This document shows, piece by piece, positions 1,868 to 44,558 of a stretch of 64,000 nucleotides of DNA. The DNA is from a virus. How positions within the stretch are numbered: the stretch's first letter is position 1; the number at the start of each line of letters is the position of its first letter. The translations under genes and the position numbers were made by a program. The stretch is from IMG/VR virus record IMGVR_UViG_3300028591_000197. One strand, given 5' to 3'. Under the pieces are notes generated by a model. The model ran no database searches. It saw nothing but the letters and a program-made list of their open reading frames with translations, and was not told the origin of the DNA.

Positions 1868-2815
1868 ATGTCACTATTCAACGATTTGCAATGAGAGATT
1901 ATAGAAAACCCAGAGAAGACAAGAAATTACCATAAGATTAGAGCTCAAATAAATGAGAAACCACAAGAAAAAACAGAGAAACAAAAGAGGAAAGAAATGA
2001 GAGAAAGACTCTGACCAGTGGAATATAAAAAACGATATGATAAACAGCGCTACAAAAAACAGAGGAATTTGTTTAAACAAAGATATGAAGAACATAGAGA
2101 TGCTTTTAATGAGGATATGCTAAACGAGATTATAGATGAGCTTTGGCCAGGGAATAATATTATTAATCGAGATAAATATTATTTAGAAAAGTTTAGAGAT
2201 GATGATGTGAAAAGTAATTGATATAGATTTGCTTGGCGAAGTTCTAGATTAGTAAGAATTAAATGGAAAGATTTACCGAAACAACTATTACCATTTAAAG
2301 TTGTGAAGGTTAGAGGAATGGAATATTGAATAAAAAATATGAATGAAGTACAGAACAAAGCATATCAATATCTTAAGCCACATATGGAGGAATTCAAAGA
2401 TGTTACCCTTTTTCTTCAAAAGAAACAGAAACCATATGATTATCCTACATATGCAACCACTAGAGAATTTGAGAACTTTGTTAGATGAGGGCCAGTAAAT
2501 CCTTGACATATCTACTTAGTGTTTGATGCTATGCGTAGATGAAAGTATATGGCCTCAGAAACATATCTTTGAAGAAATAGCTTTATCTTTGGAGATGTGG
2601 TAGTAACTCAAACTTGAAAATTATTTAGGATAGCGTTAGAGAATAATCTACCTTGGCTAACTAAAGATACCGTGGAGGAGATACACTCCCTGAAAATGGA
2701 TTGGCGAAAAAACAAATGAGATAAGATGCCACCTATATATATTGTAAATGATGCTTATTTAATAAAAGTTCATATTAATGAACGAGAAGATTTATTTTAT
2801 ATAGTTCCTACCTAA
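1868..2815 (+). CDS. hypothetical basic protein (about 315 aa); positional candidate for terminase small subunit
   Basis: ATG at 1868 lies in the same frame as track ORF 2018..2221 and reads on through several TGA codons. It stops with TAA at 2813-2815, overlapping the TerL ATG in a TAATG arrangement. The N-terminus is Lys/Arg-rich (KRYDKQRYKKQRNLFKQRYEE). Confidence 0.45.
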
Positions 2816-4965
2816 TGTATTGACGACTTTATAAAGATTGGGATAACGATAGAGGGTTGTTCTATGATTGAGACGAAACAAATCTAAAATACACTCTCGA
2901 CCCAAAAGAAGCTAAAGAGCGATTTGAAAAAAACAAAACATTAATGGTTTTGGTTAATATTAAACGTCCGCCTGATTTGGAAATCCCTATTCAGATTCCA
3001 TTAGGAACGGATAAAATTCTGAAACAAGATATAGATACGAAGTTTTTAACCTTTATTACAAAGGGTGCTGTATCTACGAGAATGGAATTTATTCTTTCAA
3101 GATTTATGGATAACTATCATCTTGATAAGGATTGAATATTTCATAGGAGAGAAAAAGAAGATGTGAGCGCTTTAGATAGCACTCGTAATGTCTTGGCACT
3201 ATGTATGATGAAAGATATTATTTTGTGAATATTTAGAGTAACACCTTTGAGAATTCCTGCTTGAAAAAATAAAAAAGATTTTGGAAAGACAGAATATATT
3301 GAGTGGGACATAGGTGAAGACTTTGGAATCGAATACGAAGTTCAAGGACAAAAATTTAAAACAAATTTATTCGGGGTGTATAAGCCAAAATTATTTGAGG
3401 CTATGCTTGCAGATACTTGAAGAACATTTAATTGATTTTGTCTACAGCATTGGCAAATGATGGTTTGGCTCCTTAGTTGATGAGTTACCTATGTTATTTG
3501 ACCTAGGTGATGAGGTAAATCACTCTACATTAACTGAGATAGTGCGGGGTATTTACTAAAGGAAATAACAGATAGCAATGAAAAAATTCAAGAGTTTTCA
3601 GTACTCTATATGGGATTATCGCAAAAACAGAATGCTCCATATATGGTTTACTCACAGCAAATGCTTAATAATCTACTTGATTTGCCGAGCTTTTGTAACA
3701 AGTTACCTGATAGTACAGGTTTATACATCCTTGACTGAGACAAACAAAGAAAGCTTGAATATGTGACAACTAATCAAAATGACCCTACAAGGTCAAGACG
3801 TACAAGAAAGTTTGTGTGAGACGAAGCAGACTATCTTGACTGGGACTATGTAGGTACAGCAATGGCCACAGCAGATAGTCTTGTGACACTTATCTCTACA
3901 ATTGGCCCAGATACACAAGCTTGAAACTTCTATAAAGGTTGGCTTAATGCTTACAAAACCCAAAGGGATTACGAACCTATTGATGTGCTAATACACGATA
4001 TATGGACGAAATATGGAATGCACTTGTGTACATCTAGGAAAGATTATTTGAAGAAGATAAAGAATTGAGACTTCGAAAAAATGAGGGCGGAGTTTATTCA
4101 AAGAAGACCTGAGGTAGCTTTACATTTTACAATGGATGATGTAGAGTTCTTGACACAAGAGCAAAAAGACGCACAGGTTATAAGGGTGCTTAATGCTAGA
4201 GGTTATGACTATATGCTCGCTGAATATTATGGAGAATATTCAACTGACCAGACAATTTTTAATGTGGAGTGAAGACAACTACAATGTCCATCTAGTTGTG
4301 ACTATTGGGTAGTTGGGTATGATGAAGCTGACACATTCGACAATCCTTGATTGTGTATATTGTGATGTAAGGATGGAAAGTACTATATCAAAGAAACTTA
4401 TAACTTAGCTAAGGAAAGTAACGAAAGATTTGCTAAAATGAAAAGTGTAATCCAAGACTTGAAAAACTCTTGAAAGCCTGTGTATTTAGTACTCGATGCG
4501 TCTCGTGGATGGGCTGCAGCTAGAGAGCTTGGAATGCTTGGTATGCCTGTTGATATGCTTATTAAGCGGACTTGAAATGTTACATACCAACCTTGAGCTA
4601 GGCATAACGTTTGAAAGGCTTGGTGTATTGAGATGATAAAGAGTTCTTTCTTTGATACAAACATTCTCTACATTGACCCAGCTTGTTATTGAGAAAATGG
4701 TTTAGTTGAAGAATTAAGCCACTTCAAAAAATACAAATCATCTGCTAGATGAGAGAAAAAGAAACACGATGACCAGGTTTCTTGAATGATGCTTGTACTT
4801 TATTTTGCTTGGTTCCACGACCAATTATGAACGAAAGATGTTGCAAAGATAAGTAATCAAAAGTCAAGTCAGCAAATTGCTGAATGACTTCGAGCAGAGA
4901 GATATCAGAAACCCAAGGAAACAACTTGAGATTTCCTTTCTAATTTGAAAAATAATTTGTTCTAA
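2815..4965 (+). CDS. terL: terminase large subunit (about 716 aa)
   Basis: Walker A reads GPRGGGKS, with three of its four glycines encoded by TGA. Walker B reads KFVGDEADY. The C-terminal nuclease-type region has LVLDASRGWAAARELGM and VVGYDEADTFDNPG. The gene sits at the start of the structural block, and track ORFs 2944.. and 4081.. lie in its frame. Confidence 0.7.
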
Positions 4966-5017: not shown

Positions 5018-5320
5018 ATGTTATTAGAAAAGAAACAAGAAGTCTTAAAGACTTTAGTAGACAATTATGTAATTATTAGAGACGAGGATTGAGAATTCCT
5101 CTGTCTTCTCGGAAGAGATGATGAATGATATTTTATCTATTCCCTTGAGCAGCACAATATTACCAAATCAGACGCAGAGGCTTTGTTAGACAAGGCAGCC
5201 TGAATTGCGCTAACTCCAGTGGTTGATGAGAAGATTAAATTACAATACAAAGAAGAATTGGACGAAGAAGAAGAAAATTTACAAACACAGATTGAGGAAG
5301 ATTACTTCGAGGAGGAATAG
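5018..5320 (+). CDS. small acidic protein (about 100 aa)
   Basis: ATG at 5018 directly after the promoter motif. The frame is continuous through 3 TGA codons and ends with TAG at 5318-5320. Confidence 0.45.
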
Positions 5321-5350
5321 AAAAATATTTATTCGATAAATTTTTGCTAA

Positions 5351-8331
5351 ATGAGTGCAAGTGATGATGTTCTAAATCTATTCAATAATCGTAATAATTT
5401 ATTTAAATTACCATCTCAAAAGACTCTAGCAGAGAAAATAGCAGATGGGTCAATATCACAACCAGTATCAACTACCAATGAAGTACAAGAGGAGCTATTC
5501 ACTCCTAGTGCAATTTCTTCTGTTGTGAAAAATAATTTAAATAATCCAGGTTCACCTATATTAACTAATGGTTGACAGGATGATACCACTACACCTATTA
5601 CGCAATCATCACAAACAGATGTTGTATCGCAAGAACTACAAGAAACTAATGCAAATGATAATCCAGAGACACAATGAATTAGTTGATTCTGGAATAATCT
5701 TAAAACCTCTATGAAGGCTAGTAATGATTACGAAGCCAAGAAAAAACAAATAGCTCTATGATATGATGAAGATTCTGAAGAAGTTCTTTATCTAGACCTA
5801 GATGAGTCTGAATGAATTACAGATTCTCTTTGAGGAATTATATGAACTCGTGAAGCATTTGAACAAGCTTATGAAGACTATCTTTCTGCAGCATCTGACC
5901 CTACATTGTCAGAACAAGAACAGGCTAAATTACTCCTTAAGTTTTATGATGATACAAAATGATTATTTAGACTTAAGTGAGATGATTGGTATAGTGATGC
6001 TATCTTTTTCCAAACGGATGACACAAAAATGTTTTGAAAAAGAAAGGACCAGTATAGTGAGGAAACATTAAAAAATTTATCTGCTAATGGGACAAAGGCT
6101 TGAAAGTTTGAACCAACGTTTAATGAATGGCGAGAGTATATACAGACACAAGCAGAAAATGAGGGAATTCAAAAAGAAATTCTAGAATGATACGGAATTG
6201 CTTCAGATACTACAACTACAGAATTAGACCTAGAGGACTCAGACAAAACCCAATTAAATAGCTTGTTTGATAGGGCTATGGCTTGAGTGTTGCCAGCTAT
6301 TACTGAAAATATTCCTGCTGCCGAAACACATCATAATGTAATTTGAAAACTTAGAATGATGGCTAGAGAGCAGCTTTCGGACGTAGATGAGATAGCACAA
6401 TGAGTTTATAATATTGAAAAACTTGTATTACTTAAGCCAGAAAGTGAGCGAAATGAATACGATAAAGAAGTAGTTACTACAGCAAATGCCTTTAGACAGA
6501 TGGAAAAAGATTTTGCCGATTGATTAAATGATTTCTTCTTGCAAACAATTAAGGGTTGAATTGATGAGAATTGACAATTGACTAATTTGCTAGATATATA
6601 TGAAGACTGAAAAGAGCTTTGGGAAGTTTTATGAGATAAGGTTAGAGAAGACTTACCAGAATGAGTGATTGAATTTGCTCCCTGAAAAACTGCTAAAGAT
6701 GTCTTAGATAAGAATTGGTCTGTAAAGGATATATTCCAAGAACTAAACAATAGGGTTCGTTATCATTACTACAAAAATAATGTGCACGATGATAGTCGAT
6801 GGGGACGTCGTTGGGATGATTTGCAAAGATTTCGATGATTAGCTGAGGAGTCTTGGATGGAGATATGACAAAATGTGTGGCAATCTATTAGTTCATTATG
6901 GGATAACCAAACGGAATATTCTGACCAAGATATAACAAAAGCTAAGCTATTAGACGCAAATTGATTTTTGTATGACTATTTCTGAGGAGATACTATATAT
7001 AAATACATTTATTGATTAGAAGAGCTTTGACCAGAAACTGCTTGAAGCCTTTGAGCTATGTGGCTTGGGTCAAAATGATTTTGAGCGGCAGGTAGATGAA
7101 CAGGGTTCTTTACATCTATATCAAATAATATTTCTAGAAGTAAAAATGCCATCAATGCTATTAAAGCATTAAAGTGATGAACTCTTTTAGAAAGAATGGC
7201 AGCCCTAGATAAAGCTATGGCTTGAGTGTCTACTTGAACGAAGAAGTTGAGTGATATATCAAAAGCACTTACTACAAGCGAGAAGCGATGGATATGAACA
7301 AAATTAGCGGCACAAAAATTAGATAAACTAATTACAGAAGGTATTGTAGACCAGACAATGGATGCCTTATGGTCTCCATTTGATACTGAAGCATATTCTC
7401 CTTTAAGTATGCAATTATCTCTATGGTGAACACTTGGACTTACAATGCTCCCAGAATTAAATAAAGGTAAAGCCCTTACTTGATGGCTAACTAGGTCTGT
7501 TCGTGATACTTGAAACGGAATATGGGATATGGTTGACTTCTTAACATCTTCTAAAGAATGAGCTGAGCAATTCTATCAAGCATTCTGAAAAGATATTAGA
7601 ACAATGTCTCTTACAGACTTAGAAAATTTCAGGAAAAGATTTAAGGAAATGGAGTGAGCTGCAATTAAAGCTTACAATCAGTTACCTGAAGCTTGAAAGG
7701 AGGCGGCCTGACAATGGACGAAAAAAATGATGTATGATTATATTGCTCAGGCATTTGGAAGTAATTCAGAGATAGCAAAGAGTGTTAGAACTATCCTTAT
7801 GAATAAAAAAACCGACCCCGCAGATATAATCAAATATATCGGAAGGAATGCTTGAACAGTTTCATTTGGACCTTATATCTCTACAATTAAATTTAAACAA
7901 TGAACTAGGTGACTCGTATCTTGAGCATATGACCCAAGTCTAGATGCTCTTGGATGAGGATTTGCATCTAGATTAAGTTGAGGATTTACTCAAGATGATA
8001 TAAATAAACTTTCTAAAATATCTCATCTTGATGAAAATTGAAATCCAAAAGATTATGGTGATATAGTTAAGAATCAAGATAAATTATTCTATAAAAGTAA
8101 TTGAAAATTCTATTTAACTGAGGAATGATTAGAGCGTTTCTGATTATCAGCCTCACACGAATCTCTAGAATCTCTAGGTATTAGCTTAGCTAGAGCTGAA
8201 GAGGTTAAGGAGATATTAAGGGAGAAGATGAAATGAATGGGAAAATTATCTGATGATGTAATTGATGATATAGCTGAGACTTGAGCTTATGATGAAGTAT
8301 TAGCTAAAATGAGAGAAATAGTTTGTTAATT
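5351..8331 (+). CDS. giant protein 1 (about 993 aa), unknown function; virion or internal protein candidate
   Basis: The frame is continuous from ATG 5351 to TAA at about 8329 with about 60 in-frame TGA codons. It is Glu/Lys-rich and predicted helical, with recurrent AMAGV and GGF motifs. Track ORFs 5351.. and 6406.. are fragments or shadow ORFs of it. Confidence 0.55.
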
Positions 8332-8352
8332 TTATTTATGAAGTATCTATAA

Positions 8353-11300
8353 ATGGCGAAAGTTAAAAATTGTGAAGATATGGCAAACATATTAGCCGTA
8401 TCTTTGTTCACCTGAGATGAAGAGATGGCTAAAGCCTTAGCGGAGGCTTCATTCCAAAAGAGAGTGGCTATTTCTCGTAGTAAGAATTTGGATGTGTCTA
8501 AGGATAGTAAAGAGATAGATGAGCTTACAAAGCAATCCTGACATCACCTACATTTGAGAGCTGCTTCTGCAGACATACAGATTATGTCTATAATTCAAGC
8601 AAAGATTCTTAAATGAGAAGGTAGAGTTAAGGAAGCTGAGGCTATATTATGAGAAGCTTATCGTAGAATGTGATGAACTATATGATGATGAATTGATTTA
8701 TTAAATATGGTTCAAAACGCAAAGCCATCTGAATTGGATGAAATAGCTAGGCTTCGATGATTGAGTTGAAAAAAAGCCGATGAAGTTCTCGAACAAATAA
8801 ATGACCAGATAGCTAAGTTTGAGTCGTCAAACTATAGTATAAAACAGCACGCGGACTTTGTTCGTGACGATATGGCAAAGATTAAAAGTAAATATAGGAA
8901 GAAAGAGCGAGATGATGAAAAAATAGAGAAGGAAGTTGAAAAGGCATATAGGAAATGATTAAAGGATATTATGGAGGGAAATAACCCTACTGATATAGTA
9001 AAGCTTGATGAGGAATGGGCTCAAATAAAAAGGCTCTATCCTGTCAATTCTTCTATGAAATGAAAGACAAAGGAAAAAATGTTGAAGGCTAGGGCAGAAG
9101 CCTGGAGTCAATATATTATGGCTAGAGAAATTTTGGCTGATTGATGAATTGATGAAGATATATTTAAGGCTTTTAAGAAATCAATTAAAACAAAAAACCT
9201 AGCTAAAAAATTAACAATAGACCAGATTATGGCCTACAAAAAATGAGACTTAGACCTTTTGTTGGCTAGAGCTTATTTAAATACAAAGCAATTATGTGAG
9301 GATTGAGCACTTAGAAAAGCTTTTAGAGATAAGTTAGTTGAGCTTACAACTTGAGAAGATGTAAGTTGACAAACTTCAAAAAGGATTCAATCTATTATAA
9401 ATACATTAAAATTTTCTGAAGAATGAGCATCGTTTGCTACTGTACTTAAATACGATAATCTAGCTAATAGTGTGATTGACCGTGGGTTAACTACACAGAA
9501 GAAAAGATGAAAGAAAATATATGAATCAATTATGAAGTTCTGTAAAGAACTTAGGGAAAATCCAAACCTTCTTGAGGAAGAAATTGTTATCGATTGAATG
9601 AAGATGCAACCTGTAGATGTAATTCAATTGGTTTATGAAATCACTTGAGATAAAAATATTGTAGCTTTGTTAAATATTGGGAAATATGATGATAGTATTG
9701 TGTTAAATGTAGCATCTCAATATTTGCTAGGGAACAATAAAGCGGCTCAAGAATCTATTTTAAAGTTATTGGCTAAATGAAAGAAATGAAGTCAAATAAC
9801 AAATACTCGTAATTTGATATTAAAATCAATTACTTGACAAGATATTGAGGATTGAGCAAAGGTTGCTTTCTATGATTTTAGAGAGTGATTATATAATAAA
9901 AACAAACTAAATAGACGTAGAGCAGACTTTAGAGAAGCTCTTGCTAATAGAAACAGATTGAGGATTGAAGGTAGTGGTATTACAAATCTATCTGAAATTA
10001 AAGATGAAAAGTTATTAGCTAAAGCTTTGGATGAATTTGAATGATGATATTTGGTTGTAAATGATATAGCTTGGAGAGATAATGAAGTATTAAGAAAAGC
10101 AGTTAAAGATAAGAAGATTACAGTTATATTTCCAGAAAGAGGGATGACATCTAATTTTGTTTGGGAGGATAAAAATCTAATCTTTAGGACTAATGATAAT
10201 AAACTCTTTGAAAAAATTGCAGGTAAAATATCTATTCAAACATTATGATGAGCTAGACCTACTGAAGCAATTGAAGAAGCTTGAAAGAAGGTAAAAAGTT
10301 GAGCCACTGAAGCTTGACAAGAGATAAATGTAGTTAGAGAGATTGGAACTATAGATGATGATATAGAAGCTGCGGCAATCAAATATTATTGAGAAATGCT
10401 TTGAGAAACTACCCCAGAGAAATTAGATGATGAGTATGTTCGTAGAATAAAGAATATGCTAGCTGAACATCTATGACTTGATATTAAAGCATTTGATGCA
10501 ATAAAAGATAAAGCTGAGCTTTGGCAGATGATTGATGAGAAATTCTGTATGGAGAAGCTTACAATGTGAAGATATGAAATGGAGATAATTGATATGTGAG
10601 CAGAAATAAAGAGAATTGAGGATATGTCTCCAGAAGAATTGATTAAGGAAATTAAACAACATATCTGAGACTATTATAGTGATGAAGCTATGCTAGAGGC
10701 TTGAGTGTTTAATCAGATTAGAGAAGCATATATAGACTTTAGAACTGCAGAATCCCCAGAAACTATTTTGATGGCTAAGTGAAGAATGATGTCTTTGGCT
10801 GCTTGAGGGCAGGCAAAGAGAATGACTATGGACCAAATCATTTCGATGTTTCAAAAATGAACGATGGCCGATGTCTATAAAGAAATGTTCTTCCCAACTC
10901 AAGATTTAACAAAGGAACAGCTAGATACTTTGATTAATAGTATCAATGATGATTTATTTGATATTATTTGTCTACAAGTAGAGAATAACTTAGTAAAAGC
11001 TTGATATTCATTACCATTGATGAACATAAAATGAATGGTGTATGACTACATTAAGACAGGTGAAATATCTACAGCTTGAGATTTTGTTAGGAGTTTTGCT
11101 CTTAAGAATAACATAAATGACACTGTAGTTGGTGAAACTTTGCTACAGTTTATGCCAAAAGAAATTAAGTTTGACTATGAAGATGCTCTATATAAAGGTA
11201 GAGATTTAACTATAGAGAATGGTCAAAGAAGTGTATTTAGAGAGGCTAAAAATGAATTCTTAGAAGACAGTTATTCTGCTCTTGCTACTATAGAGATGGC

Positions 11301-14300
11301 TAAATCTTGAGATATGCCAGCTGGATATGAAAGAGAAATCTTAGAAAAAATCCTAGATAAATATATAAGCAAGTTTTCAGAAAGATTAGCTGCTTGATGA
11401 TTAGACTTTAGGGAAGCTGCCTGAATAAAACAAGAAGCGTCTTATGCTTTGGATATGTTTGAGCAAGATTTAGTTCTTGCTAGGTTTGGTAGATTAATGT
11501 CTCCGTCGGAAAGACAGTGATTGCTTTGAATGAAATATGAACTTCCTATTGCCGTGTCTTGACAAAATTCAAGCGATGTAATTAAGGAAATGGAAAAAAT
11601 CAAAGCTACTTTATTAGATAGATATGATAGGACATTAAAGAATGTAGCTGAAAATAACAAAATTAATGCCACAATAGCTAAATGAATGGATTGAAAAAAG
11701 TCCTTAAAAAAGAGAATCGAATTAAGAAAACAAAAACTTAAAGAAGACTGAATGGTTATAAAAGAAGTTAACTGACAATATCTTACATTTGATTCTAGAA
11801 CAGCATTACTCAATGAATTAAATAATTTATCTCCTAATATTAGGTGACTTGAATCCATCAAAGCTTTAGGTAAGAGTTGATTGGAGCAATTACCAAATGA
11901 ACAAGTATATGCTATATTAAGATATGTGGAAGCAGCAAAGGCTTTAGAGTCTAAGGCAAATTATGTTACTACATTAATGTATAAGCAAAGCCCAGAGTTG
12001 TTTAATTTACAGTTCTTTAAGAGTTATAAAGTTGTAGATTGATTACCAAGAATTATGCACGGTAATTCTCTACAGAATTTAGATGTACTTAAGAATCTTT
12101 CAAATACTTCTGTAGTTGATAATACAATGAAGAGACAAATCTTCAAAAAAATAAAAGAGGAATTTGGAATAAACTGAAAATTAACAGAGAAAAAGTTAAA
12201 GGCAATTATCAAGGAAGTGGTAGATGATAATGCTCAAGATATACTTTGAACTGCAAAGATATCTGTATATAAGAAGAAGTTGGCTACTGAATTAATGGCA
12301 TTAAAATACAAAAGGTTATTTAATCCATATACCCTTATTAAGGATTTGCCTACACAATGATGAGAAGGTTCAATAAAAAAGAAGGTTGAGGATATAATTA
12401 AAAAGCAATATAATGAAGCAATTCTCGATTTAAAAAATATGGGGATTGATACATTAGATAGCTTGGAAAATAAAATCTCAGTTATCACAACTTCTTGAGA
12501 AGAAAAGACTTTGAAAGAAATAGGGACTGAAAGTATCGATTGATGGAAGAAGGATGTATTTGATGATGAAACTATCTTTGTTAAGTCGGCAGACGAGATA
12601 AAAGATTTTGATACTAGCGATTGACATTGGGGAATACTTAGTAAATGGAGAAAAGATAAGGCAGTAAAAGAACAGAAAGCATATAGGGAAATGATTGCTA
12701 ACGAATATGACTCTACATTACAGACTATGCTTAATGGTTCTGAAGATATTACATCAGCAGAGAGAAAACTTATGACAGCTCTTTGGTTTGATGTGAGGTG
12801 AAAGATGAAAAAATATTCATTAACTAATCAAATTATCGAGACTGCTGATGTACTAGGTTCATTAAATGAAGAAATTGCTAGATGAATGAAAGACTATTTG
12901 ATATGATTTATATGAAATGCTTCATTCTGAAAACTTAATTCTAAAGCAATCACAGATAGATTAAAGGAGGTACAAACAGCATATGAAAAATTTTATACTT
13001 TAGATACGGCTTCTTTAAGTAGGGTTAAGCCTACAACTAAAGCAGAACATCTAGCATTAAACTTAACAAAATATTTTAAAACTATGGAGAATAGTTTATG
13101 AAGTTTTGATTGAGTTACTTGATGTACAACTGTTGCAGATATAAATAAAGCATTCTATCACATCTGAGAAGTGTTTATGAATCTAAAGTGAACTGAATGA
13201 GTATTCTCTTTATTGTCTGCTATTGAGCAAAACCAGATATTAAAATTCTTTAAATTCGCTGAGAAGTGAGATGATGCTTATGTAGATATATTCAAGCATT
13301 GATGACTTAAGGAAGATTGAGCTTTGGGTTGATATAGGGATTATGTAAATGAGGTGTCTCTTACGAGAGAGCAATTTAATCGTATATTTGGTGCAGCATT
13401 TGATAATCGAGATTATAAAGAAATAATGCAGGCTCTTTCTTGATTTACAATAACTTGAAGTTGGTTCTGAAGGCGAGGGCAAAGAATATTAAATTTCTTG
13501 AACTGAAGTACTTGGATGTGAAGATTAATTCTTTCTTATCCATTACAGTTGCTCTCAATACCTTTACAAGGATGAGCATATTTCTTAAAACAAATTTGAT
13601 TTGAAAGAAGATTATGAATTGATAGTTTGCGGGATATAGATGTGGTTAGAGATTGATTGTGAATTTGAAATGGAAGCTATAACGAATTGCTATGAATATG
13701 AAAGAGTTTAGTAAGTCCAGATGATTTGAACTTAAATTCTTACTACAATAGGTACTGAATACCTGATGTAGATAGAATATATAAATGAGCGAATTTTGAA
13801 ACCGCACAAGATTATTTAAGTATGTATGCTAATATAGATAACTATGCTTCTTCTGATGTCAGCTCTGTATCTTGGTGGTTTAGGCAACTTGACCCATATA
13901 AAGATAATGCAAACAATATTATAGACTGAGCATTTGCTAGAAACTTTAAGAATATAGCTTTCTACAAAGCTATGAAGGAGAATAATTTCCTACAGTTTGG
14001 CTCTGTGAGAGAGCTTACTGATTTCTTAAATAATCCAGAAATAAGTGCTGGAATTAAAGATAAGTTGATAAAAAGATTAGAAACAGATTTCGCTAAAAAC
14101 TTTAGAAGTATTCTTTGATTATGATTTGGTTGATTAGATAGACCAGTCGCCTGAAATGCTTTATGAAATATATTTATTTGACTAGCTAACTTATTTAATT
14201 TTAGGTGAAGTTGGTGAAGAAATATAGCTAAGCAAACTTGACAATCAATAATGTCTACTTTAAAATGGATTAAGATGAACCCATTATCAAAGGAGGCAAA

Positions 14301-16656
14301 GGAGGCAATGGCAGACTTCTTAGTAAAAACGCCAGAATTTATGAACTTCATATGAGATTGGTTTAACTGAATGCTTTGGTCTTGGAAGTTAATAAGGTAT
14401 CAAGATAATGGAAAGTGGGAAGACTTAGACCAACCGCATTCAATTATGGACTTCTTAGAGTTCTTAACAGATAACTTTAGTGAGATGGCAGGAATGATAT
14501 TTACAAATGCTAATCTTACATCTCAATGGCTACAAGGTATTGAGTCTTATGGAATTGCTAGACCAGTAATTGAAGCTATTGGTTCTATGTATTTAAGTAG
14601 TCAAAATCCAACTATATATAAAGATACTTGGTGAGTTTGAGCATTGTTTAATTCTATTGGTAAAAACTTTGGAAGACAATGGAAGACTAGAAACTTCATA
14701 TTTAAGCTTCTTTGAGTACGAAGGACTGACTGAGCTTCTTGAGTTGAGGCATTTATTCAAAACGAATTATGGAAATTATCTTGAGGTTCTGTTAGATATA
14801 TGGTAACCGAAGATATGAATTCTTATTGATATACAATGGAAATGACTTGAGAAGAGTGAGGTTGAATCCCTTCTCTATTCTTATGAGAAGCTCCTATTGG
14901 TTCAGATAAGACATTTATGTATGAATTAGATAATACAGAGGTTTGGGAAACTATAAAGTTATTGTTTGATGATGATTTAGCTTGGAGTGATAAAAAAGCT
15001 TATGCAAGTAATCTTACTAGATGATTAGTTAATTCATCTCAATTACTTTCTGCTGGATATAATTCTTGAAAGCTGTGGCATTGAGAAGATTTTACTCATC
15101 CATTTACAGAGAGTGATTTAGCAGGAGTTCTTACAAAGACAGAATATTGAAAAGAATTCTATAGGAAGTGATTAGTAACTCCAAAGAATCCAGATGATGC
15201 TAGAACATTCTATGACCAGCTTACTAAGAATTGACAATATAGGCCTTGAAGTGAAAGCTTTAACACATCCATAGAGAACTTTAACAAGACTTGACATATG
15301 GATGGAAAGGATTGAAAAGAGGCAGACAAGGAAATGGAACTTTGGTTAAATCATATGAAGTATTCAACTAATGAACATTGAGAATATATCCTTAAAAGTT
15401 GAAAGAAAGTTGAAGATAAAGCTTGGACAATGCTTATGCAAGACATTAAATCACATTATTATGACCAAGATTATGTTACAGATTTAGTATATCAATATTC
15501 ACAGAAATGGTTAGATGTACATTCTAGTGACCCTAATTATCCTCTATATCTTAAGATGTTGTGACAATGAGCTGCTTATAGGCTTATTCAAGATTGATTA
15601 AATAGAGAAAAAGAGCTCCTTAATATCTTTGGTGGTAAAAAGGCTAATGAAAAATGGGATTTAAATGAACTTAAAAAGGCTTGATACTTGGATGATTTAA
15701 TCTTTAAAGTTTGAAATAGCAAAATTCTTTGAGGAGATGAAACATATTTCGAGAGATTGCAAGCTCTAGACCAAGATGCAGCAATTGATGCTTCTTTGAT
15801 GCTAGCAGCACAGCAAGTAAAAGATGAAACGGATAAAAAAACTTTGGAAAAGTTCTTTAAGATTGTCGAGGAAGATGATTGAACAGGAGAAAAAATTAAA
15901 TCTATTCAATTTGAAAAACAATATCTTGCACAGCTAAGACAGCTATGAGCTATGGAGATTGCTAAAGATGAATGAAATTTAGAAAGATTTATAGCTGAAG
16001 CTGCAAACATAACTAATATGTTTAGCAACGATGACCCAACTTGAGTTGTAACGGCTAGCTTAATTGATTCTATTTATGAGAGAATTAATTCGTCTAACTT
16101 ATCTTGAGCACAAAAGGTTGAGGCTATGGCGGCTTTATTTCATCATAACAAAGATTTAATTCAGCGTAATCCTGAATTAATGAGAGAATACTTATGAGAT
16201 GATTATGATAAGTATGCTAAATATATGAATACAATTTTGTACTGATGGGATTGACAACTTATCTCTACAATCGATAGTATGATTACAAGTAATGATGATG
16301 ACACAAAGAGCACTTCTTGAAAGTGAGCTTCATTATCTTCAGCATTTAAAAGTACTTGAATGAAGCTTTGAGGAAACAATTATTCACAGTCTGTGACTAC
16401 TTGAAGCTGAGAATACAAACAATGGATTCCTATCACTATTGGTTGAGCAGAATTAGTTAGAGCTCTTTGAGTTAAGTGATATACTCCAGATGTGTCAAAG
16501 GTTAAAGTTAATAGTTATAAACCTCACGTTGACTTCTCTATTAAGAAAGATGTTAACAGAAGTGTTAATTGACCAAAAACACAACAGATATCAAATAAGA
16601 AACAATTAAGCAATCTTACGAAGAAAGCTAAGAAGGCACTTGAAGCAGAAAATTAA
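8353..16656 (+). CDS. giant protein 2 (about 2767 aa), unknown function; candidate ejected or internal virion protein
   Basis: I walked the frame codon by codon from ATG 8353 to TAA 16654-16656 and met no TAA or TAG, but well over 150 TGA codons. Track ORFs 10051.. and 14371.. lie in the same frame. Confidence 0.6.
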
Positions 16657-16660
16657 TAAG

Positions 16661-16730
16661 ACACACAGACATACTCGGGTGGAACAATCCTCCACTCGAG
16701 GTGATGTATGTGTCTTAAAATATTTTTGAT
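16661..16730 (+). terminator. rho-independent terminator after giant ORF 2
   Basis: Long hairpin (gacacacagacatac-tcgggtgga...tccactcgag-gtgatgtatgtgtc) followed by ttaaaatattttt. Confidence 0.5.
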
Positions 16731-16811
16731 GACGGTAGTACCTGATATTTCCTTTTATATTTTATGCCAATAAAAATGTGAATTGATGTAAATCAGATGG
16801 AGGAGGATGTT

Positions 16812-17098
16812 ATGACAGAACACGTTGCTCCAGAAAATGAAAAGGCTAGGGAAATGCTAGACAGAATTGTTCAACAAGAGTTATGAATGTCTGCTCAAGA
16901 GCTTTACCTTAGATGACTTGTACAAGAAATTAAACGTTTACAAGAGACACAAGAGAAGTGATACGAAGAAAAACTTTTAAAGTATTACAAAGAAATTGAC
17001 AATATATGCTGATTTTCTAAGGACAAGAGAGATGTTAAAATCGAAACTAAACTTAGAAGTACAGCTGACATTTTTAATTCTACAACTCTTAACTAATG
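16812..17098 (+). CDS. hypothetical protein (about 95 aa)
   Basis: The ATG is preceded by ggaggagga. Its stop overlaps the next ATG (ctaATGg). Confidence 0.45.
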
Positions 17099-19143
17099 GA
17101 AAATATAGATAGCGAAGTTAAAAAACAAGAGCAGGAGAGAAAAAATAAAATCTACCAAGACAATTCTACCGACTCTGAGCGCACCATCTATGGAAAATTA
17201 AAGAAAATCTTGTATCACTTTAGAGACAACATCTTTCCAGAATGGTTTGATGTAGTTAAAATGGATAAACTTTATTCTAAAGAATATGAGGCTTGACTTA
17301 AAAGACATAATATGCAATACAAATCAGCTAAGATTTATCCACTTATAACTTCTATCCACGATACATTTATGGCTTCATTGTACGACAATGACCTTCGTCC
17401 TAAAGTGTTTCCTATGGAAGAAGTAGACCCACAAATTGTTGATGATGCCCAGTTATTCTTCCAATGGGGTACTGAGATATCAGAGACAGAACAAACTAAT
17501 GAAATTATTAGAAATGAAGCTTCATTGATTTGAGCATCTTATGGTATGCCAGGTTATACTACAAGTATAATGAAGAATGATGACTGAGAAAATGTAGTTA
17601 CATTCATTCCTTGTTTATTCCCTGTGTCTGCATTTGAAATGTTCTATAGTGTTTGAGCAACAGACTTTTATAAGGCCCCAGAGAAATTTAGGAGAAGGTT
17701 TATCCCATTTGATTGATTAAAGGATGCCTTCTATCCTATATGGGATTGAAAAGATTGAATGTGAAAACAATTAGAGAAAAAGAAGTCCGCTATCCTAGAA
17801 GCACCTATGCCACTTAGTAAAGCAGATTTTACGAAGATATATGACATTGATGCATACTCACAAACATATTTATGATACTTGGGTGATGGAACTGCTACGG
17901 GTATGATTTATGATGATACATTTAACATCTTGGATAGCTCTAGTTACTGTGAAGTAATTGACCTATATATAGGCGATAAGCTTATGGTTATGGTGAATGG
18001 TTATTTTGTTTATTCTGGAGAAAGTCCTTTCAAATATTGAGAAGACTTTGCTATTACAGGGAAGGACGGGCCATTTATTGAGCTAACATTTGAGAAATGA
18101 GTTGGATGTATTCCTAGTGGAATTGGTAAGAAAATTATGGGACACCAGAAACAGTGTAATGCTCTATATAATTCTTTAGCAGATGCTATGTATAGACATC
18201 TTAATCCTGTATTAGCAGCTGTTCAGTGAGCGATTACTGACCCTACTACAGGTAATGCCCCTACATCTATTGGATATGATGAGTGAAAAGTTTACTCAAT
18301 CAATCCTTCATATGCAGGAATGAATAATGCAATCACAAAAATAGACTTTACTGATTACAACATTCTTCAGTTAGCTATGAATCACTTTGAGAATATCAAA
18401 GCTGATGCCTATACAATTTGTTGAGTTAACTCATATGTTCTTGGTTGAGAATGAAAAATTGAACGTTCTCGTTACTGAGCAGAACAGAGAGTTAATGCTT
18501 CAAAAGCTAGACTTAGTCCTATGATTAAATCTATAGGTAGATTTTATGCTAAGTTATTCTACCATTGGCTATGACTTGCTAAGCAGAGTTGAGCTAGTGT
18601 AGCTTATGTACAGAACGAAGACGAAGAATATGTAATCAATCTTTCTGAACTAGATAAGAAGTTTAAGATTGTATGTTCTGCAGATATTTGAGTAGAGGAA
18701 ACTAAAGCTTCTAAAGTTCAGTGACTTCTTACTATGATGCAGAATACTTCAGCATTTGCTACAAATCCTATTACAGGATTGCCAGATATTGATAATAAAG
18801 CATTCCTTGAAAGTGTTGCAGATTATGCAGGGCTTAAAGGATTTAAGGCTATGACAACTGATGAGCAGAAGCAATATATTGATGAAAGTTATCAAATTAA
18901 AGATTATATACAAAAGAAAGAAATAGAGGCACAGAAGCAAGTACAAGAAGCTCAGCCTCAACAACAGCAACAACCACAGGCTATGCCAACTACCAATGGT
19001 CAGCCTAGTGAAGAAGAAATAGCTATGATGATGCAACAAGCTCAAGCAGCTAATCCAGAACAATCAACATTACCTTATGTAAATTCACAGTACCCAGAGG
19101 TGGTAGATGAAAGCCAATTAGACTTTGTAATGCCTCAATAATA
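17096..19143 (+). CDS. putative portal protein (about 681 aa)
   Basis: Track ORFs 17096.., 17312.. and 18734.. are one frame once TGA is read through. Size, position (upstream of the scaffold-MCP pair) and a Q-rich acidic C-terminus (QPQQQQQPQAMPTTNGQPSEEE) all fit a portal. Confidence 0.4.
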
Positions 19144-20378: not shown

Positions 20379-20399
20379 TTTTTAATAGGTTAATTAAAT
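20379..20399. repeat. 21-nt exact repeat TTTTTAATAGGTTAATTAAAT abutting the MCP start codon; the second copy at 57498-57518 abuts the SSB start codon in inverted gene-relative orientation
   Basis: Exact match seen in the sequence at both sites. Confidence 0.5.
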
Positions 20400-21945
20400 G
20401 GCAGGAACAACTGTTTGTAATCCTTGCGATGCAGCTGGATTGGCTGCTGACTACAGACCAGATTGTGCTGAAGGACTTTCTGGAAAGAGCATTGAATTAC
20501 AGAAAATTTTGAACCCATTATATGCTAATGGACGTGTTTTGGAAACTTGGGGACAGTATGAAGATTTCCTAAGATATGAAACAATCTTCTTCGATGTAGT
20601 ACCTCAAAAAGACCCTACAACAGGAGAAGTATACGTAACTTATAAATTCAAAGATGGTTTAGCTGCTTCTAGCGAACTAACTTTGGTTGATTGTGAATGT
20701 AAAGTAGGTTGGTATGAACCAAGAATTTGTGGTGACGAAACTAAAGTAGCTGAAGCTGCTGAAGTTGGAGCTACTGCAATCGTTGTTGAATCTTTGGCTC
20801 CATTAGGAGGAGTTGACAGAGATTCTACAATCCTAGTTATGAGACAAGGTGGAAATCCAGTTAATGGACTTTACATCGACCACATTGATAGTGCTACAAA
20901 TACTATCTACTTAAAGAGACCTTTGACAGTTGCTTTAGCTGTTGGAGACAAAGTTCGTAGAGGAGCTTACTTAAGAGACAGAAGTTGTGAAACTGAAATC
21001 TATAATCCAGTAGAATTAGGAGGATTAGATTACTATTCTGCTTTCTTCAGAACTATCTCTATTTCTCACGAATTTAATTGGTGTGATTTGAACAAAGACT
21101 ACCTTATCTCTGGAGGAATCCAAGCTATCGTAGATGCTATGTTCAGAAAAGGAGACATCGAAGCTATTAAAGAATTCTTACACGCTGCTTTCTATGATAG
21201 AAACATCCAAGTTTCTGCTCATAAATGGGAGACTATGGGACTTTTCCCTGCTCTTGCTAGAGCTCAAGCAAATGGATTAAAGATTGCTTTCGACCTAGAA
21301 GGATGCTGCGACGAATCAGCTTCTGAATGTGTAAATGCTAGACATCAAATTCAATCTTTCTTGGATATCGTAATCAATAAAGCTACTGTATCTGGAATGT
21401 ACAAAAACAACGTAACTGTTGCTATGAACAAGAAAGCTATGGAAGGATTACATATGATGCAAGGATATTTCCAAGATTATGGAAATGTTGGATTCTTAGA
21501 TGGAAGCCAATTCGATATCGATGTTGGATTACCAAGAATTAGATATGCTGGTATTACTATCACTTTCAAATACTTGCCAATCCTTAACGATTTCGACTTC
21601 TCTGTAATGTTAACAATCCCTGAAGATAAAGTTGGAGTATTCCAGCCTAAATACACTGTAGTTGACACTAACGGAAAAGTTGTAGCTAATGCTAACATTA
21701 ACGGATACATCTCAAAAGGAACTCCTATGTTGAGATACTTACCAGATAATCCTTACAATATCTGAGCACAGCTTGGAGAATGTAACAAGATTGTTGGAGA
21801 TGTTAAATTCGCTGTAGTATGGATGTGAGTAGATAAAGGAGCTTATAGATTCATTAAGAACTTTGGTTCTTGTGTTCTTAACGCTTGTGATGTATGCTCA
21901 TTAGAAGATGTAGATGTAATTGATGGTGAACTCGATGTAGACTAA
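20398..21945 (+). CDS. putative major capsid protein (about 515 aa)
   Basis: This is the only long standard-code ORF (455 codons with no TGA). TGA codons at 21766 and 21829 are read through to TAA at 21943-21945. A scaffold-like gene lies just upstream and a strong terminator downstream. There is no TGA in 455 codons although TGA is frequent in the other structural genes. Confidence 0.55.
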
Positions 21946-21959
21946 TATAGTCTTTCAAA

Positions 21960-21998
21960 GTGGGAGGGCTTAACTTAGCCTTCCCATTTTCTTTACTT
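21960..21998 (+). terminator. rho-independent terminator after the MCP gene
   Basis: Stem tgggagggct-taact-tagccttccca followed by ttttcttt. Confidence 0.6.
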
Positions 21999-22015
21999 GA
22001 AAAATAACAAAGCTG

Positions 22016-22665
22016 AATGAAGGTAAAAGATATTTACAGCTGAACTAATATAACCGATAGTGGTTGTGAAAGTAAGATAGCGAGATTTAATGATATCCTA
22101 TCCAGCTTTGCAATAGAGGTCTTTGACTTCTACCCTAGAAAAGTTATGGAGAGATTTACTCCTGTTGATGGGACTTATACAACAAAGTATCCTATTGCTA
22201 AAGTGCGAGGGTTCTTTGGTAAAGGTTGTAAAATATGATGTAGTTTAGACCCAAAAGACTGTTGTGCTTGATACAAGAGACTTTTGATGGAGGAATTATA
22301 TTGAGATAGTTTGAGTGATTTGGATGCAAATAGTTATTCTATTGTATTCGATAACGATAAAGAATGAGAACAAGTAATTGATACTATCAACTTTAAGCTG
22401 CCTTGTGGAACAGATGATGTTCTTATTATCTATTCTAAATGATTCCCTAAAGTTACTTCATTAGACCAGGATATCGATATTGATAGATATACTCTTTCTT
22501 TGTTGAGGTTATATATGAAATCTGAATATGCCTTAGAAGGAGAAAGCGACATCAATATGTCCGCTAACTACTATAGTAGGTTCCAGACAAAATTAAAAAG
22601 ATTAAAGGAGATGTTCGACAATAGTCTTAAATACATCGTTCCTTGAGCTTTAAATGCTGCTAATA
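22016..22665 (+). CDS. hypothetical protein (about 216 aa), Cys-containing
   Basis: Continuous frame from ATG 22016 to TAA 22663-22665 with TGA read as sense. Confidence 0.4.
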
Positions 22666-27921: not shown

Positions 27922-29103
27922 ATGGCTAAAAAAGTTATTGACAAACTTATGTTAAATGGGCAAGCGTATCAAACTGCCTATGACAATACACTTACTATCC
28001 AGAAGAACTGAACGACTGTAGATAGCGTTAACCTTAATGCTACTGCTGATAAAACTATAAACATTACAGTCCCTACAAACTCTGATTATGTAGATTTAAC
28101 TTCTGCTCAAAGTGTAGGTGGAGTAAAAACTTTCACTAGCGAAATTGTAGTTCCTTCTAAAACTACAGACGCAACAAATACAGGAACTTCTGTTGCTACA
28201 GAAGCTCAGGTTTACAAAAAGCAAGATGCTTTAAGTTTACCTTCAACTCCTACAAGTGGTAACTTAGTTGCTTGGGGAGCTGACAATAAAACTCTTGTAG
28301 ATGGATGAGCTATCCCTACAGGATTCAACCCAGATAATGCTGGTTCTGTTGGACAAGTTTTGAAAAAGACTAACAATGGATACGAATGGTGAACAGATGA
28401 GGGACAGACTTATACAGCTGGTACTAACATCTCAATTGATGCTAACAATGTAATCTCTGCTGTAGATACAACTTATTCTGAAGTATCTAAGTCAGATATG
28501 GACACAGGGACTTCTACAACAGCTGGAGTTGTTTCAGCTAAATCTATCGCTGATTATGTTAGCGGAAGAATTGGAAGTGCTGTTGAATATAAATGACAAG
28601 TAGCTGATTACGCTTCATTGCCAGCAGACCCTGAGGTAGGAGATATGTACAACGTAGTCGCTGCGCATACAACTGCTCCTGAATTCGATGCTTGAACAAA
28701 TGTAGTATGGAATGGAACAGCTTGGGACCCTATGGCAGAGATGGTTGACTTATCTAATCTAGTAGACTTAACTTCTGCTCAAACAATTAGCTGAGCAAAG
28801 ACATTCTCTACAGAACCTATCTTACCTTCTAAAACTTCTGCTGCTACAAATACTTGAACTGCTCCTGCTTCAGAAGCACAGGTATACGCTGTAGCACAAT
28901 CTATTCCTACAGTTAATGATGCTACAATTAGCTTCACACAAGCTGGTAATAGCGTAGGAACATTAACTACAAACCAAGGTACAGCTGGAACATTAGCTTT
29001 TGCTGGAGTTATTCCTGCTACACAAGCTGAATGGGACGACTTACCAAGTTCTAAAATGACAGACAATAATACTTATTTAATATATTCTACTATTAATGAC
29101 TAA
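27922..29103 (+). CDS. tail fibre protein (about 393 aa)
   Basis: It contains a cassette of about 110 aa (SAKSIADYV...GDMYNVVAAH...TAWDPMAEMVDLSNLVDLTSAQTIS) that is near-identical to a segment of the 32305 gene. Its C-terminus is ...NNTYLIYSTIND. Confidence 0.6.
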
Positions 29104-29143
29104 TTTATTTCAAAAGTTTATAAAAAACTGAGTTGAAATTAAT

Positions 29144-32100: not shown

Positions 32101-32245
32101 AAATCTTTGGTGATGATATAGTAAATGAACTCGACAAGATTGTCGCGATGCTATTTCTTCTACTTGATGATTACCATCTTGATGAACAGTCTGACAAGTA
32201 TTAATGATGACTGCAGATTGACCAGCTTGGGTAACTTTATCATAA
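29144..32245 (+). CDS. tail fibre / adhesin (about 1033 aa) with two Fib_succ_major-like (TIGR02145-type) domains
   Basis: Two copies of the motif set DKNLGATTVWNSGD...CGKYYQRGNNYGF and GFHVPLQSEWQAVYD...LKLPMAGYRF...YWSSS...GGYSVRCFKD. Track ORF 30227.. lies in this frame. Confidence 0.6.
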
Positions 32246-37191: not shown

Positions 37192-37950
37192 ATGGCAATT
37201 TATATTTGGACAGATAATCACGTAGGTGCTTGAATATACCATAACCCTTCTCAGGGATTAATTTCTTTAAGTAGAGACTGAGTGAATTGGACTACTATAG
37301 CTGACAAAAATTTATGAGCTACGCAGGTGTATAATGAATGAGATACATTTAGTGCAGCTAATGTTTGAAATTGGTATCAACGATGAAATAATTATGCGTT
37401 TCCATATTCTATTTGAAGTACGTGACCTAGTTCATCAAGTTCTACACAAGTAGACGCGTCTACATATGGTCCAGGAAATTATTATTCTTCTTCTACACGA
37501 ATAGACCCATATGTAGTAACTCAAAGTTCTTACCGAGACTCTAGTATAAATACTGACTTATGGTGAGGTGATACTAATACGCTTTCTGCTTTACAATGAC
37601 CTTGTCTAAGTGGGCGACATATTCCAACACATAGTGAAGCTGTAGGTATATGTAATAACTTTACACAGATTTCAAATTCTGGTCTATGAACCTATTTAAA
37701 AATGTGAAATCGGTGAGTCTTAAATAATGCCTGAACTGTTTCAGCTGAGGGATTATGGTGAAACTTACATACTGCTACATTAGAAGAAACCGAACCAGGG
37801 TTTTATACTCTTCGACAAATTACTACTTCAGATGGAGGTTTTTATACGTGAGGAGCTTGAGGAACTGATGGATGAGCCCCAATTCGTCCGTTTAAAAATG
37901 TTTGAGTAGCACCAGATAACTCACGAACCGTTTTATATCAACCTTCATAA
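37192..37950 (+). CDS. stand-alone Fib_succ_major-like domain protein (about 252 aa)
   Basis: Carries ADKNLGATQVYNEGD...GNWYQRGNNYAF, GPCLSGRHIPTHSE and ...GGAPIRPFKN. Confidence 0.5.
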
Positions 37951-44456: not shown

Positions 44457-44558
44457 GCAGGTAATACCGTAGTCAAAAATATTTTAAGACACACAAATAA
44501 TACGATGTGGATAAATTACTTACTTCAAATTATTTTATCTAAAATAAACATTTTAAGA

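Follow-up and report, generated by a model that had tools for sequence, protein, structure and literature searches.

Two adjacent genes, here called giant1 (5351-8329, plus strand) and giant2 (8353-16656, plus strand), lie between a probable terminase gene (terL) and the portal gene of the virus record IMGVR_UViG_3300028591_000197, in a 64,000-nucleotide (nt) stretch that was analysed over its full length and is referred to below as the window. Their products are probably two paired cargo or ejection proteins carried inside the virion of a podovirus-like phage, whose host reads TGA as glycine and probably belongs to the Absconditabacterales. This is the best-supported reading because relatives of giant2 carry cassettes with an ADP-ribosyltransferase (ART) domain, ART-PolyVal, and HExxH modules, and because the gene pair is fixed within the block formed by terL, the portal gene and the gene for the major capsid protein (MCP). 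That the giants are packaged and ejected had been proposed from the sequence of the window alone. The cassettes of relatives and synteny across 13 loci now favour that proposal, although the support they lend is indirect.

Polyvalent proteins and giant virion cargo are already known as kinds. What is new is a conserved scaffold of about 2,700 residues without any catalogued domain, the insertion of cassettes at fixed hot spots within it, an obligate partner of about 1000 amino acids (aa), and a pair of terminal cysteines. The family is also new in being restricted, so far, to phages that read TGA as glycine.

Reading frames, genetic code and selection

When TAA and TAG are taken as the sole stops, the stop-to-stop frame of giant1 coincides exactly with 5351-8329 and comprises 992 codons and a stop (2,979 nt); that of giant2 coincides exactly with 8353-16656 and comprises 2767 codons and a stop. 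The original prediction had described two consecutive giant open reading frames (ORFs) free of TAA and TAG, and both are indeed intact. It had given them spans of 7.3 and 8.3 kb, the first of which is far from the actual length of giant1. TGA occurs 58 times in giant1 (5.8% of codons) and 158 times in giant2 (5.7%), and GGN glycine codons make up 2.6% and 1.9% of the two genes, which bears out the earlier remark that both frames are rich in TGA codons for glycine.

Three independent lines of evidence establish that TGA encodes glycine (code 25) and not tryptophan. In the Walker A motif of the neighbouring terL (xPRxxGKS), the first glycine of the P-loop is encoded by TGA. In a codon alignment of giant2 with five homologues recovered as DNA, columns with TGA in the window stand opposite GGN at a frequency of 14.1% and opposite TGG at 0.3%; columns with GGN in the window stand opposite TGA in 41.5% of cells, and those with TGG in 1.9%. 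In three relatives, translating TGA as glycine instead of tryptophan lifts the Pfam ART-PolyVal score from 20-52 bits to 32-74 bits.

A search of the window for a tRNA that could decode TGA found no tRNA gene, and decoding must therefore come from the host. Code-25 phages of the Absconditabacterales host group have been described (PMC10746230). The text of that paper contains none of the words 'giant', 'polyvalent' or 'large protein', and literature searches that turned up such phages yielded no account of this gene pair.

Both frames are translated genes that have been held under strong purifying selection along their whole length. Nei-Gojobori estimates of the ratio of nonsynonymous to synonymous substitution rates (dN/dS) against a 95.5%-identical contig (L007) are 0.077 over giant1 and 0.066 over the opening 7.8 kb of giant2, and the four quarters of giant2 give uniform values of 0.04-0.08. 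Low in-frame ratios, together with end-to-end homologues in which conservation is even, identify the two genes as real and constrained. Missed stops or frameshifts that would split them into ordinary genes had been named in advance as grounds for abandoning the idea; the intact frames and the uniform constraint speak against any such split.

The same data dispose of the view that the long frames are artefacts, produced either by the chance openness of AT-rich DNA once TGA is ignored or by a string of smaller genes. This view can point to table 11, under which the longest ORF across the giant1-giant2 stretch encodes 197 aa. However, in-frame ratios near 0.07 contrast with values of 1.4 and 2.3 when giant2 DNA is read in its two other frames. 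Full-length homologues exist at 20-50% identity, with TGA and GGN exchanged at aligned codons, and the entire window carries dense long ORFs, and is coding at all, only if TGA is a sense codon. The selection estimates, the out-of-frame controls and the TGA/GGN interchange refute the artefact view, which is almost certainly false.

A conserved scaffold with cassettes and terminal cysteines

Members of the giant2 family were collected by a HMMER scan in which a profile of the C-terminal 1,129 residues was compared with 1.84 billion cluster representatives. There were 47 protein matches, about 23 of them full length (2552-3965 aa). Five of these proteins (P0001-P0005) align with giant2 from end to end at about 50% identity, with conservation spread evenly along the length. 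All family members contain 3-8% tryptophan and at most 4.7% glycine, the composition of TGA-recoded genes translated with the wrong code, and the scan found no member in a standard-code genome. A further scan of IMG/VR with the core alignment, using patterns that carried W at TGA positions, gave no confirmed relative. Every public translation (P0001-P0038) has tryptophan at TGA, which lowers domain scores and degrades structure prediction. For example, ART-PolyVal in P0004 scores 72.1 bits with TGA as glycine and 51.9 bits with TGA as tryptophan, and the glycine-rich sequence ILGLGFGGLDR appears in public translations as ILWLGFWWLDR.

BLAST breakpoints and the family alignment indicate that the longer members consist of a giant2-like protein with extra blocks at three recurrent places. 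The first, site A, corresponds to giant2 residues ~641-653 (10273-10311, plus strand), where relatives carry 137-919 extra residues and the alignment shows gaps of 636 and 322 columns at window residues 650-652. Site A (~640-653) is occupied in eleven proteins; inserts there contain an ART-PolyVal domain, usually accompanied by an HExxH module. The second, site B, is a hot spot at residues ~940-990 (11170-11322, plus strand), defined by BLAST breakpoints, empty in the window and occupied in four proteins (P0017, P0018, P0023 and P0026). The third is the N-terminus, where P0024 has a block and P0029 a long extension.

Pfam finds ART-PolyVal (PF18760, cut-off 31.2 bits) in 14 of 16 scanned blocks, with scores of 30.8-108.7 bits in 13 inserts (P0003-P0005, P0008, P0010-P0015, P0018, P0023 and P0024). 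The range of 32-74 bits given above comes from the three inserts that could be translated exactly with code 25; P0023 also exceeds the cut-off, and nine of ten further inserts score at or above it. At site B, P0018 and P0023 carry the domain with scores over the cut-off and P0017 with a score under it (25.6 bits), which makes three of four inserts. Conserved HExxH modules of the HELFH type ('STAPHELFHA') are found as well in most blocks, one or two in each; they score no more than 19 bits against the DUF5700 zinc-peptidase family, short of its cut-off of 25. There is also one weak LPD23 match.

The window copy of giant2 aligns straight across site A, and Pfam finds no ART-PolyVal domain in it. 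An earlier statement that the giants have no obvious enzymatic motif thus stands for this copy, but not for the family, since in most relatives a fixed insertion site is occupied by an enzyme. A neighbour-joining tree built on the core shows members without a cassette nested next to sisters that have ART, and does so in several clades: P0001 and P0002 fall inside the site-A clade, P0016 lies beside P0014, P0019 beside P0018, and P0022 beside P0023. P0027 is likewise placed beside P0026, whose site-B insert has no recognisable domain. This distribution suggests that the cassette has been repeatedly lost, or gained, and that its absence from the present phage may reflect a loss. Since the scaffold of about 2,700 residues is kept under purifying selection despite this turnover, it must have a function of its own.

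The best-conserved part of giant2 is a core at residues ~1560-2215 (13030-14997, plus strand), which contains most of the invariant columns in alignments of 24 and 27 sequences and is the part recognised in the most distant relatives. Its motifs include LDPYKDNANNIIDG, NFRG.GG.N, QDNG and KLS.GSLRYM. Invariant columns in the family are mainly N, R, K, Y and F, with just two acidic residues. The protein as a whole contains 9.8% lysine, 9.6% leucine and 7.6% glutamate, in agreement with its earlier description as rich in lysine and glutamate.

Neither giant has a meaningful match in Pfam, PHROGs or NCBIfam; giant2 has no Pfam domain beyond noise at E≤1 and no LPD domain. Searches of Protein Data Bank (PDB) sequences gave no match with a giant1 profile and nothing at E≤5 with a profile of the whole giant2 family. 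Megablast and tblastn comparisons of the DNA, the portal and a 732-residue giant2 core with 50,697 GenBank phages were also empty. Comparisons with hhalign found neither internal repeats in giant2 nor paralogy between the two giants, and a motif scan of both found no DxDGD, NADFDGD, T7-like, HExxH, Walker or DxD motif. Hydrophobic segments of transmembrane grade are absent, the maximal 19-residue Kyte-Doolittle mean being 0.90 in giant1 and 1.22 in giant2, and some giant1 homologues reach 1.4-1.6.

Giant2 was predicted to be all-helical. AF2-type models of two database homologues, in which TGA was misread as tryptophan, are nearly all helix and have mean predicted local distance difference test (pLDDT) scores of 33.9 and 50.7; the latter is an all-alpha model of the core. 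A Foldseek comparison of this misread, pLDDT 50.7 model with the PDB returned nothing below E=0.5. The helical character anticipated earlier therefore reappears in almost the whole of the modelled homologue segments, but at low confidence only.

Giant1 has an acidic, low-complexity N-terminus and a conserved C-terminal region of about 200 residues. Database searches with the single sequence or a profile returned nothing but one near-identical copy (P0006, 91% identical). Homologues identified by locus are 33-39% identical in L001 and L003-L005, and each of the 13 related loci has a positional homologue, 993-1092 aa long. A local hidden Markov model of giant1 failed to recover the positional homologue of L008.

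Cysteine is scarce in both proteins, at 0.10% of residues in giant1 and 0.22% in giant2 versus 1.23% in the rest of the window proteome (P = 6e-5 and 4e-9, respectively). The sole cysteine of giant1 is its last residue, Cys992 (codon TGT, 8324-8326, plus strand), and giant2 has a conserved N-terminal cysteine, Cys7 (codon TGT, 8371-8373, plus strand). In the giant1 family cysteine is the last residue, or the penultimate one in L013 and L014 and the fifth from the end in L010. Apart from the proteins of L001/L002 and L011, which have two cysteines, those examined contain no other. The terminal cysteine is kept in L008 and L012 even though these proteins are barely alignable or unalignable with giant1 of the window. 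The giant1 pattern was predicted from eight loci and held in five further, distant ones. In the giant2 family every full-length member has a cysteine at residue 3-8, in a nearly invariant column (C6), and it is the sole cysteine of P0022, P0030 and P0038 (2552-2881 aa).

On the simplest reading of these patterns, the C-terminal end of giant1 may be in contact with the N-terminal end of giant2, by way of a disulfide or a metal held in common, which would join the two proteins end to end. Such a join is the one geometry compatible with threading both proteins through the portal channel. A comparable device is known from adenovirus, whose protease becomes active in the virion when a disulfide links it to a cysteine close to the C-terminal end of the pVI peptide. 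A nucleotide signal (TGT-TAA) is an unlikely reason for the terminal cysteine codon, given that the distance to the start of giant2 ranges from -1 to 166 nt and that in some cases another codon comes last.

It is possible, if doubtful, that the lone cysteines are a functional pair that forms a covalent or metal bridge in the virion, and that the family is a delivery vehicle specific to Patescibacteria phages that read TGA as glycine. The two chains would then form one linear thread of about 3,760 residues (~425 kDa) that would pass as a single strand through the portal channel and come apart in the reducing cytoplasm of the host. The insertion sites would serve as plug-in points for effector cassettes such as ART. 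The cysteine pair provides a testable idea for the ordered threading of two giants through a portal, and the interest of the system would rise if the end-to-end tether proved true.

The head-gene block and its surroundings

Related loci were counted as 13 (L001-L014 except the partial L006). In every one of them, a giant1-like gene lies directly 5' of a giant2-like gene. Wherever the contig extends far enough, the order is terL, a gene of ~100 aa, giant1, giant2, a gene of ~100-140 aa, the portal gene, a scaffold-like gene and the MCP gene. This order is kept even in L008, in which identity to the window is 32% for terL, 32% for the portal, 29% for MCP and 23% for giant2.

The block opens with the probable terL (2815-4965, plus strand; 716 aa), which is assigned by size, by position and by its Walker A (GPRGGGKS, with a TGA-encoded glycine) and Walker B (VGDEAD) motifs. 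It has no Pfam or PHROGs match, and its best PDB profile match, a herpesvirus terminase, is non-significant (E=0.43). Orthologues of ~700 aa precede the giants in L001, L002, L005, L007, L008, L010, L012 and L013. The block closes with the portal gene (17096-19141, plus strand; 681 aa), which matches phrog_156 at 2.3e-9. Pfam recognises P22_portal (PF16510) in the orthologues of L008 and L011. Searches of PDB sequences with terL and the portal gave non-significant matches only.

The original prediction placed the giants between terL and the portal gene, which is correct in general terms, but a small conserved ORF intervenes on either side. The upstream one (5018-5320, plus strand; 100 aa) has a very acidic C-terminal tail and no family match. 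Orthologues of 96-100 aa in L001, L003 and L005 share its N-terminus, ML(I/L)E(R/K)KQEVL. The downstream one (16764-17096, plus strand; 110 aa) has a weak match to phrog_3395 alone (E=0.003), and orthologues of 99-141 aa occupy the same position in L001, L003-L006, L008 and L010-L013. In L005 an extra gene (17540-18463) follows the ~100-aa gene and precedes the portal gene. Its 307-aa product has an N-terminal zinc-finger-like motif (CxxC…CxxxC), and it could be a mobile, homing-endonuclease-like insertion.

The window portal is 69% identical to a portal fragment on a contig from an Absconditabacterales metagenome-assembled genome (MAG). This contig (L009, JAZUKX010000019.1; 11.8 kb, 28% GC), binned in a Candidatus Absconditabacterales MAG, is made up of the last part of a giant1 homologue, a giant2 homologue with an ART domain (P0012) and the first part of a portal gene. 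It probably represents phage DNA that was binned together with its host, not a piece of chromosome.

A long, terminator-like hairpin (16657-16717, plus strand) directly follows the giant2 stop codon, with a U-rich run to about 16727. Its predicted free energy is -29.3 kcal/mol (z = -4.72), and it is conserved in six loci (the window, L001 and L003-L006), in which five of 19 consensus pairs show compensatory changes. A simple terminator scan missed it; a strong terminator at 16661-16730 had nevertheless been noted at the outset, and the hairpin proves to be real. It may mark a transcription boundary between the terL-giant1-giant2 genes and the portal-MCP genes, and would probably close a transcription unit of lower expression ahead of the latter. 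The starts of the giants and of their neighbours (5320-5351, 8329-8353 and the equivalent positions in L001-L005) lack a preceding Shine-Dalgarno-like sequence. In several loci the start codons of giant1 and giant2 have instead a recurring AT-rich element, TTTATTT, about 12-22 nt upstream.

Other features of the window concern its late genes. Of the 516 codons of the MCP gene (20398-21945), just two are TGA and 43 are GGN, and its L008 orthologue (21049-22554) has no TGA in 502 codons; in most other late genes TGA makes up 3-8% of codons. This looks like codon selection against TGA as glycine, tied to the level or timing of expression. MCP and the products of 37954-39606 and 50164-51378 are rich in cysteine (2.7-3.7%), with motifs such as CNPC, DCEC, GCC and NACDVC, and are possibly disulfide- or metal-stabilised parts of the virion.

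At least five tail-fibre-like genes (29096-32245, 32305-37128, 37192-37950, 40338-41711 and 41713-43137) share a repeated C-terminal module, …GLISLS.DG..W.TIADKNLGAT.VYN.GD..S.AN.G..YQ.GNNYGF…GPGNY…LWGG…GPC..G.H.P…IRPFKN, which occurs twice in two of them. Pfam finds nothing in a 252-aa solo copy, and the module may represent a diversified family of receptor-binding domains. The gene at 44505-45503 encodes a 332-aa protein with a papain-like Cys/His pattern and a marginal Peptidase_C39_2 match (24.6 bits, cut-off 24), a candidate lysis or processing peptidase. Near 51.4-51.5 kb coding switches from the plus to the minus strand, and GC and AT skew change sign there. A boundary at about 51.4 kb divides the late structural module from a block of small minus-strand genes.

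Alternative readings and comparison with known systems

If the giants are packaged, they would be loaded into the procapsid near the portal and would exit in a partly unfolded state by way of the portal and tail channel, before the DNA or together with it. The conserved scaffold would supply the packaging and ejection function and might also act at the cell envelope or on the incoming DNA, and the enzyme cassette would be a dispensable payload, lost in this phage. The lone conserved cysteines, C-terminal in giant1 and N-terminal in giant2, may tie the proteins end to end. The host of such a phage would be an Absconditabacterales-like bacterium.

Several observations weigh against this proposal. 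The evidence for a location inside the virion is indirect throughout. We infer the podovirus-like form of the virion solely from the type of portal and from the absence of recognisable tube, sheath and tape-measure genes. The domains by which polyvalent proteins are defined are all missing from the window copy of giant2, whose membership follows from homology of its scaffold to that of carriers. Pfam found neither a MuF domain (Phage_Mu_F, as in SPP1 gp7; giant1 at E≤0.01, giant2 at E≤1) nor another known capsid-targeting domain in the giants, and segments of transmembrane grade, which several known ejection proteins possess, are lacking. Giant1 has no informative homologue, and the poor structure models leave fold comparison uninformative.

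The indirect nature of the evidence on location and the lack of a capsid-targeting or MuF domain lend some weight to a different account, in which the giants are not packaged and act within the infected cell, as a platform or chaperone for head assembly or as a late host-takeover factor. The genes are co-oriented with terL, which encodes a non-virion protein, and the terminator-like hairpin separates them from the portal-MCP genes. The ART cassette of relatives would then have to act from inside the producing cell. However, the ART-PolyVal family was defined from proteins predicted to travel with the invading DNA (PMC5512222), and a takeover enzyme encoded beside terL would be made too late unless it were carried into the next cell. 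The strictly conserved position within the head block in 13 loci is a further argument against this account, which we regard as unlikely.

An external structural role, with giant2 as a tape-measure-like ruler, fibre or other tail protein and giant1 as its partner, is suggested by the great length, lack of repeats and predicted helicity of giant2. Tape-measure proteins can also carry enzymatic domains, although ART-PolyVal cassettes are not a feature of them. At a helix rise of ~1.5 Å per residue, a ruler of 2767 residues would imply a tail of ~400 nm. In the orthologous loci the portal is of the P22 type, and genes for a tube, sheath or chaperone were not recognised. Giant2 also lies between terL and the portal gene, and fibre-like tail genes begin only after 22.6 kb. 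Together, these facts make a tail protein very unlikely.

The original prediction drew analogies with virion RNA polymerases and with the T7 internal core. Giant2 is comparable in size to N4 gp50 and to crAss001 gp47/gp50 (PMC10172136, PMC11445570 and PMC13434306), and some N4-like polymerases are fused to ART and MPTase domains (PMC5512222). Even so, the search that had been recommended for DxDGD two-barrel or T7-like polymerase motifs found none in either protein, NADFDGD is also missing, and Pfam detects no RNA_pol family even at E≤1. The invariant columns are mostly N, R, K, Y and F, with just two acidic residues; the family profile is empty against PDB sequences at E≤5; and the predicted structure is all-alpha, without beta-barrels. 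An N4-like single-subunit or crAss-like two-barrel polymerase is therefore most improbable. The analogy with the T7 core is likewise unsupported, given the lack of polymerase, Walker or HExxH motifs, of PDB-sequence matches and of transmembrane-grade segments, and nothing was found to connect the giants to the phage promoter motif with which they had been associated.

A packaged and injected pair remains the reading that we prefer, and it has consequences for the study of these viruses. Phages of Absconditabacteria and Gracilibacteria are known almost solely as metagenomic contigs, and their genes are routinely mistranslated. Annotation needs code-25 translation, which raises domain scores by ~12-22 bits. 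About 18% of the 64-kb window is given to a conserved two-gene module that would tie these phages to the polyvalent strategy of injecting enzymes with DNA. The occurrence of the same 2,700-residue scaffold with and without an ADP-ribosyltransferase is a natural experiment in which the roles of carrier and payload can be separated.

Known injected proteins resemble the giants to different degrees. The capsid-internal ejection proteins of podoviruses leave before the DNA (PMC10172136). Those of P22 (gp7, gp16 and gp20) and T7 (gp14, gp15 and gp16) share with the giants a podovirus setting, a P22-type portal being present in the orthologous loci, but the giants are far larger, show no sequence similarity, lack transmembrane-grade segments and occupy a different gene position. 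In P22 the genes for the ejection proteins follow those for the head and the tail accessories.

The cargo proteins of PhicrAss001 are 60-277 kDa, mostly helical, carried in the capsid or tail and thought to exit partly unfolded (Bayfield et al. 2023, PMC10172136). These proteins (gp45, gp46, gp47, gp49 and gp50) are similar to the giants in size, predicted helicity and podovirus-like context. Unlike the giants, which have no polymerase motif, three of them are related to RNA polymerase, and PDB profile searches reveal no sequence similarity. The crAss001 cargo genes are not known to lie between terL and the portal gene.

N4 gp50 is an encapsidated RNA polymerase of ~3,500 aa that is expelled with two other ejection proteins (PMC11445570, PMC13434306). 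The N4-like (Schitoviridae) enzymes are comparable to giant2 in their giant size and co-ejected partners, and some are fused to ART and MPTase domains (PMC5512222). In contrast, the giants show no polymerase motif or similarity and have another genomic position. T4 Alt and P1 DarB and DdrB are head-packed enzymes (an ART, or a methylase/helicase) that are injected to modify the host or protect DNA (PMC5512222), and they offer a functional model for the ART-bearing relatives. However, T4 Alt is small and belongs to another ART clade (R-S-E), and none of these proteins is similar to the giant scaffold, which in the window lacks an enzyme domain.

Polyvalent proteins are products of phages that have portal-terminase packaging genes; they are predicted to be loaded into the capsid and to be injected along with the DNA, and ART is the most frequent of their protein-modifying domains (Iyer, Burroughs, Anand, de Souza and Aravind 2017, PMC5512222). 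The giant2 family departs from them in that its ~2,700 residues form one conserved, non-repetitive scaffold without Pfam or LPD domains, into which the effector cassette is inserted at fixed hot spots rather than strung as a bead on a string. It also has an obligate upstream partner of ~1000 aa and has been met solely in TGA-recoded contigs. Giant2 of the window carries no effector domain, neither the signature ART-PolyVal (PF18760) nor the set of at least two unrelated effector domains (enzymatic, DNA-binding and others) in one chain that typifies the class. Its homologues do have such a set, combining ART-PolyVal with HExxH modules in a single giant chain, and their domain content varies between orthologues as it does among polyvalent proteins. 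The family is likewise encoded beside portal-terminase genes, and giant2 itself lies among the virion genes of a portal-terminase phage, between the probable terL and the portal gene and upstream of MCP.

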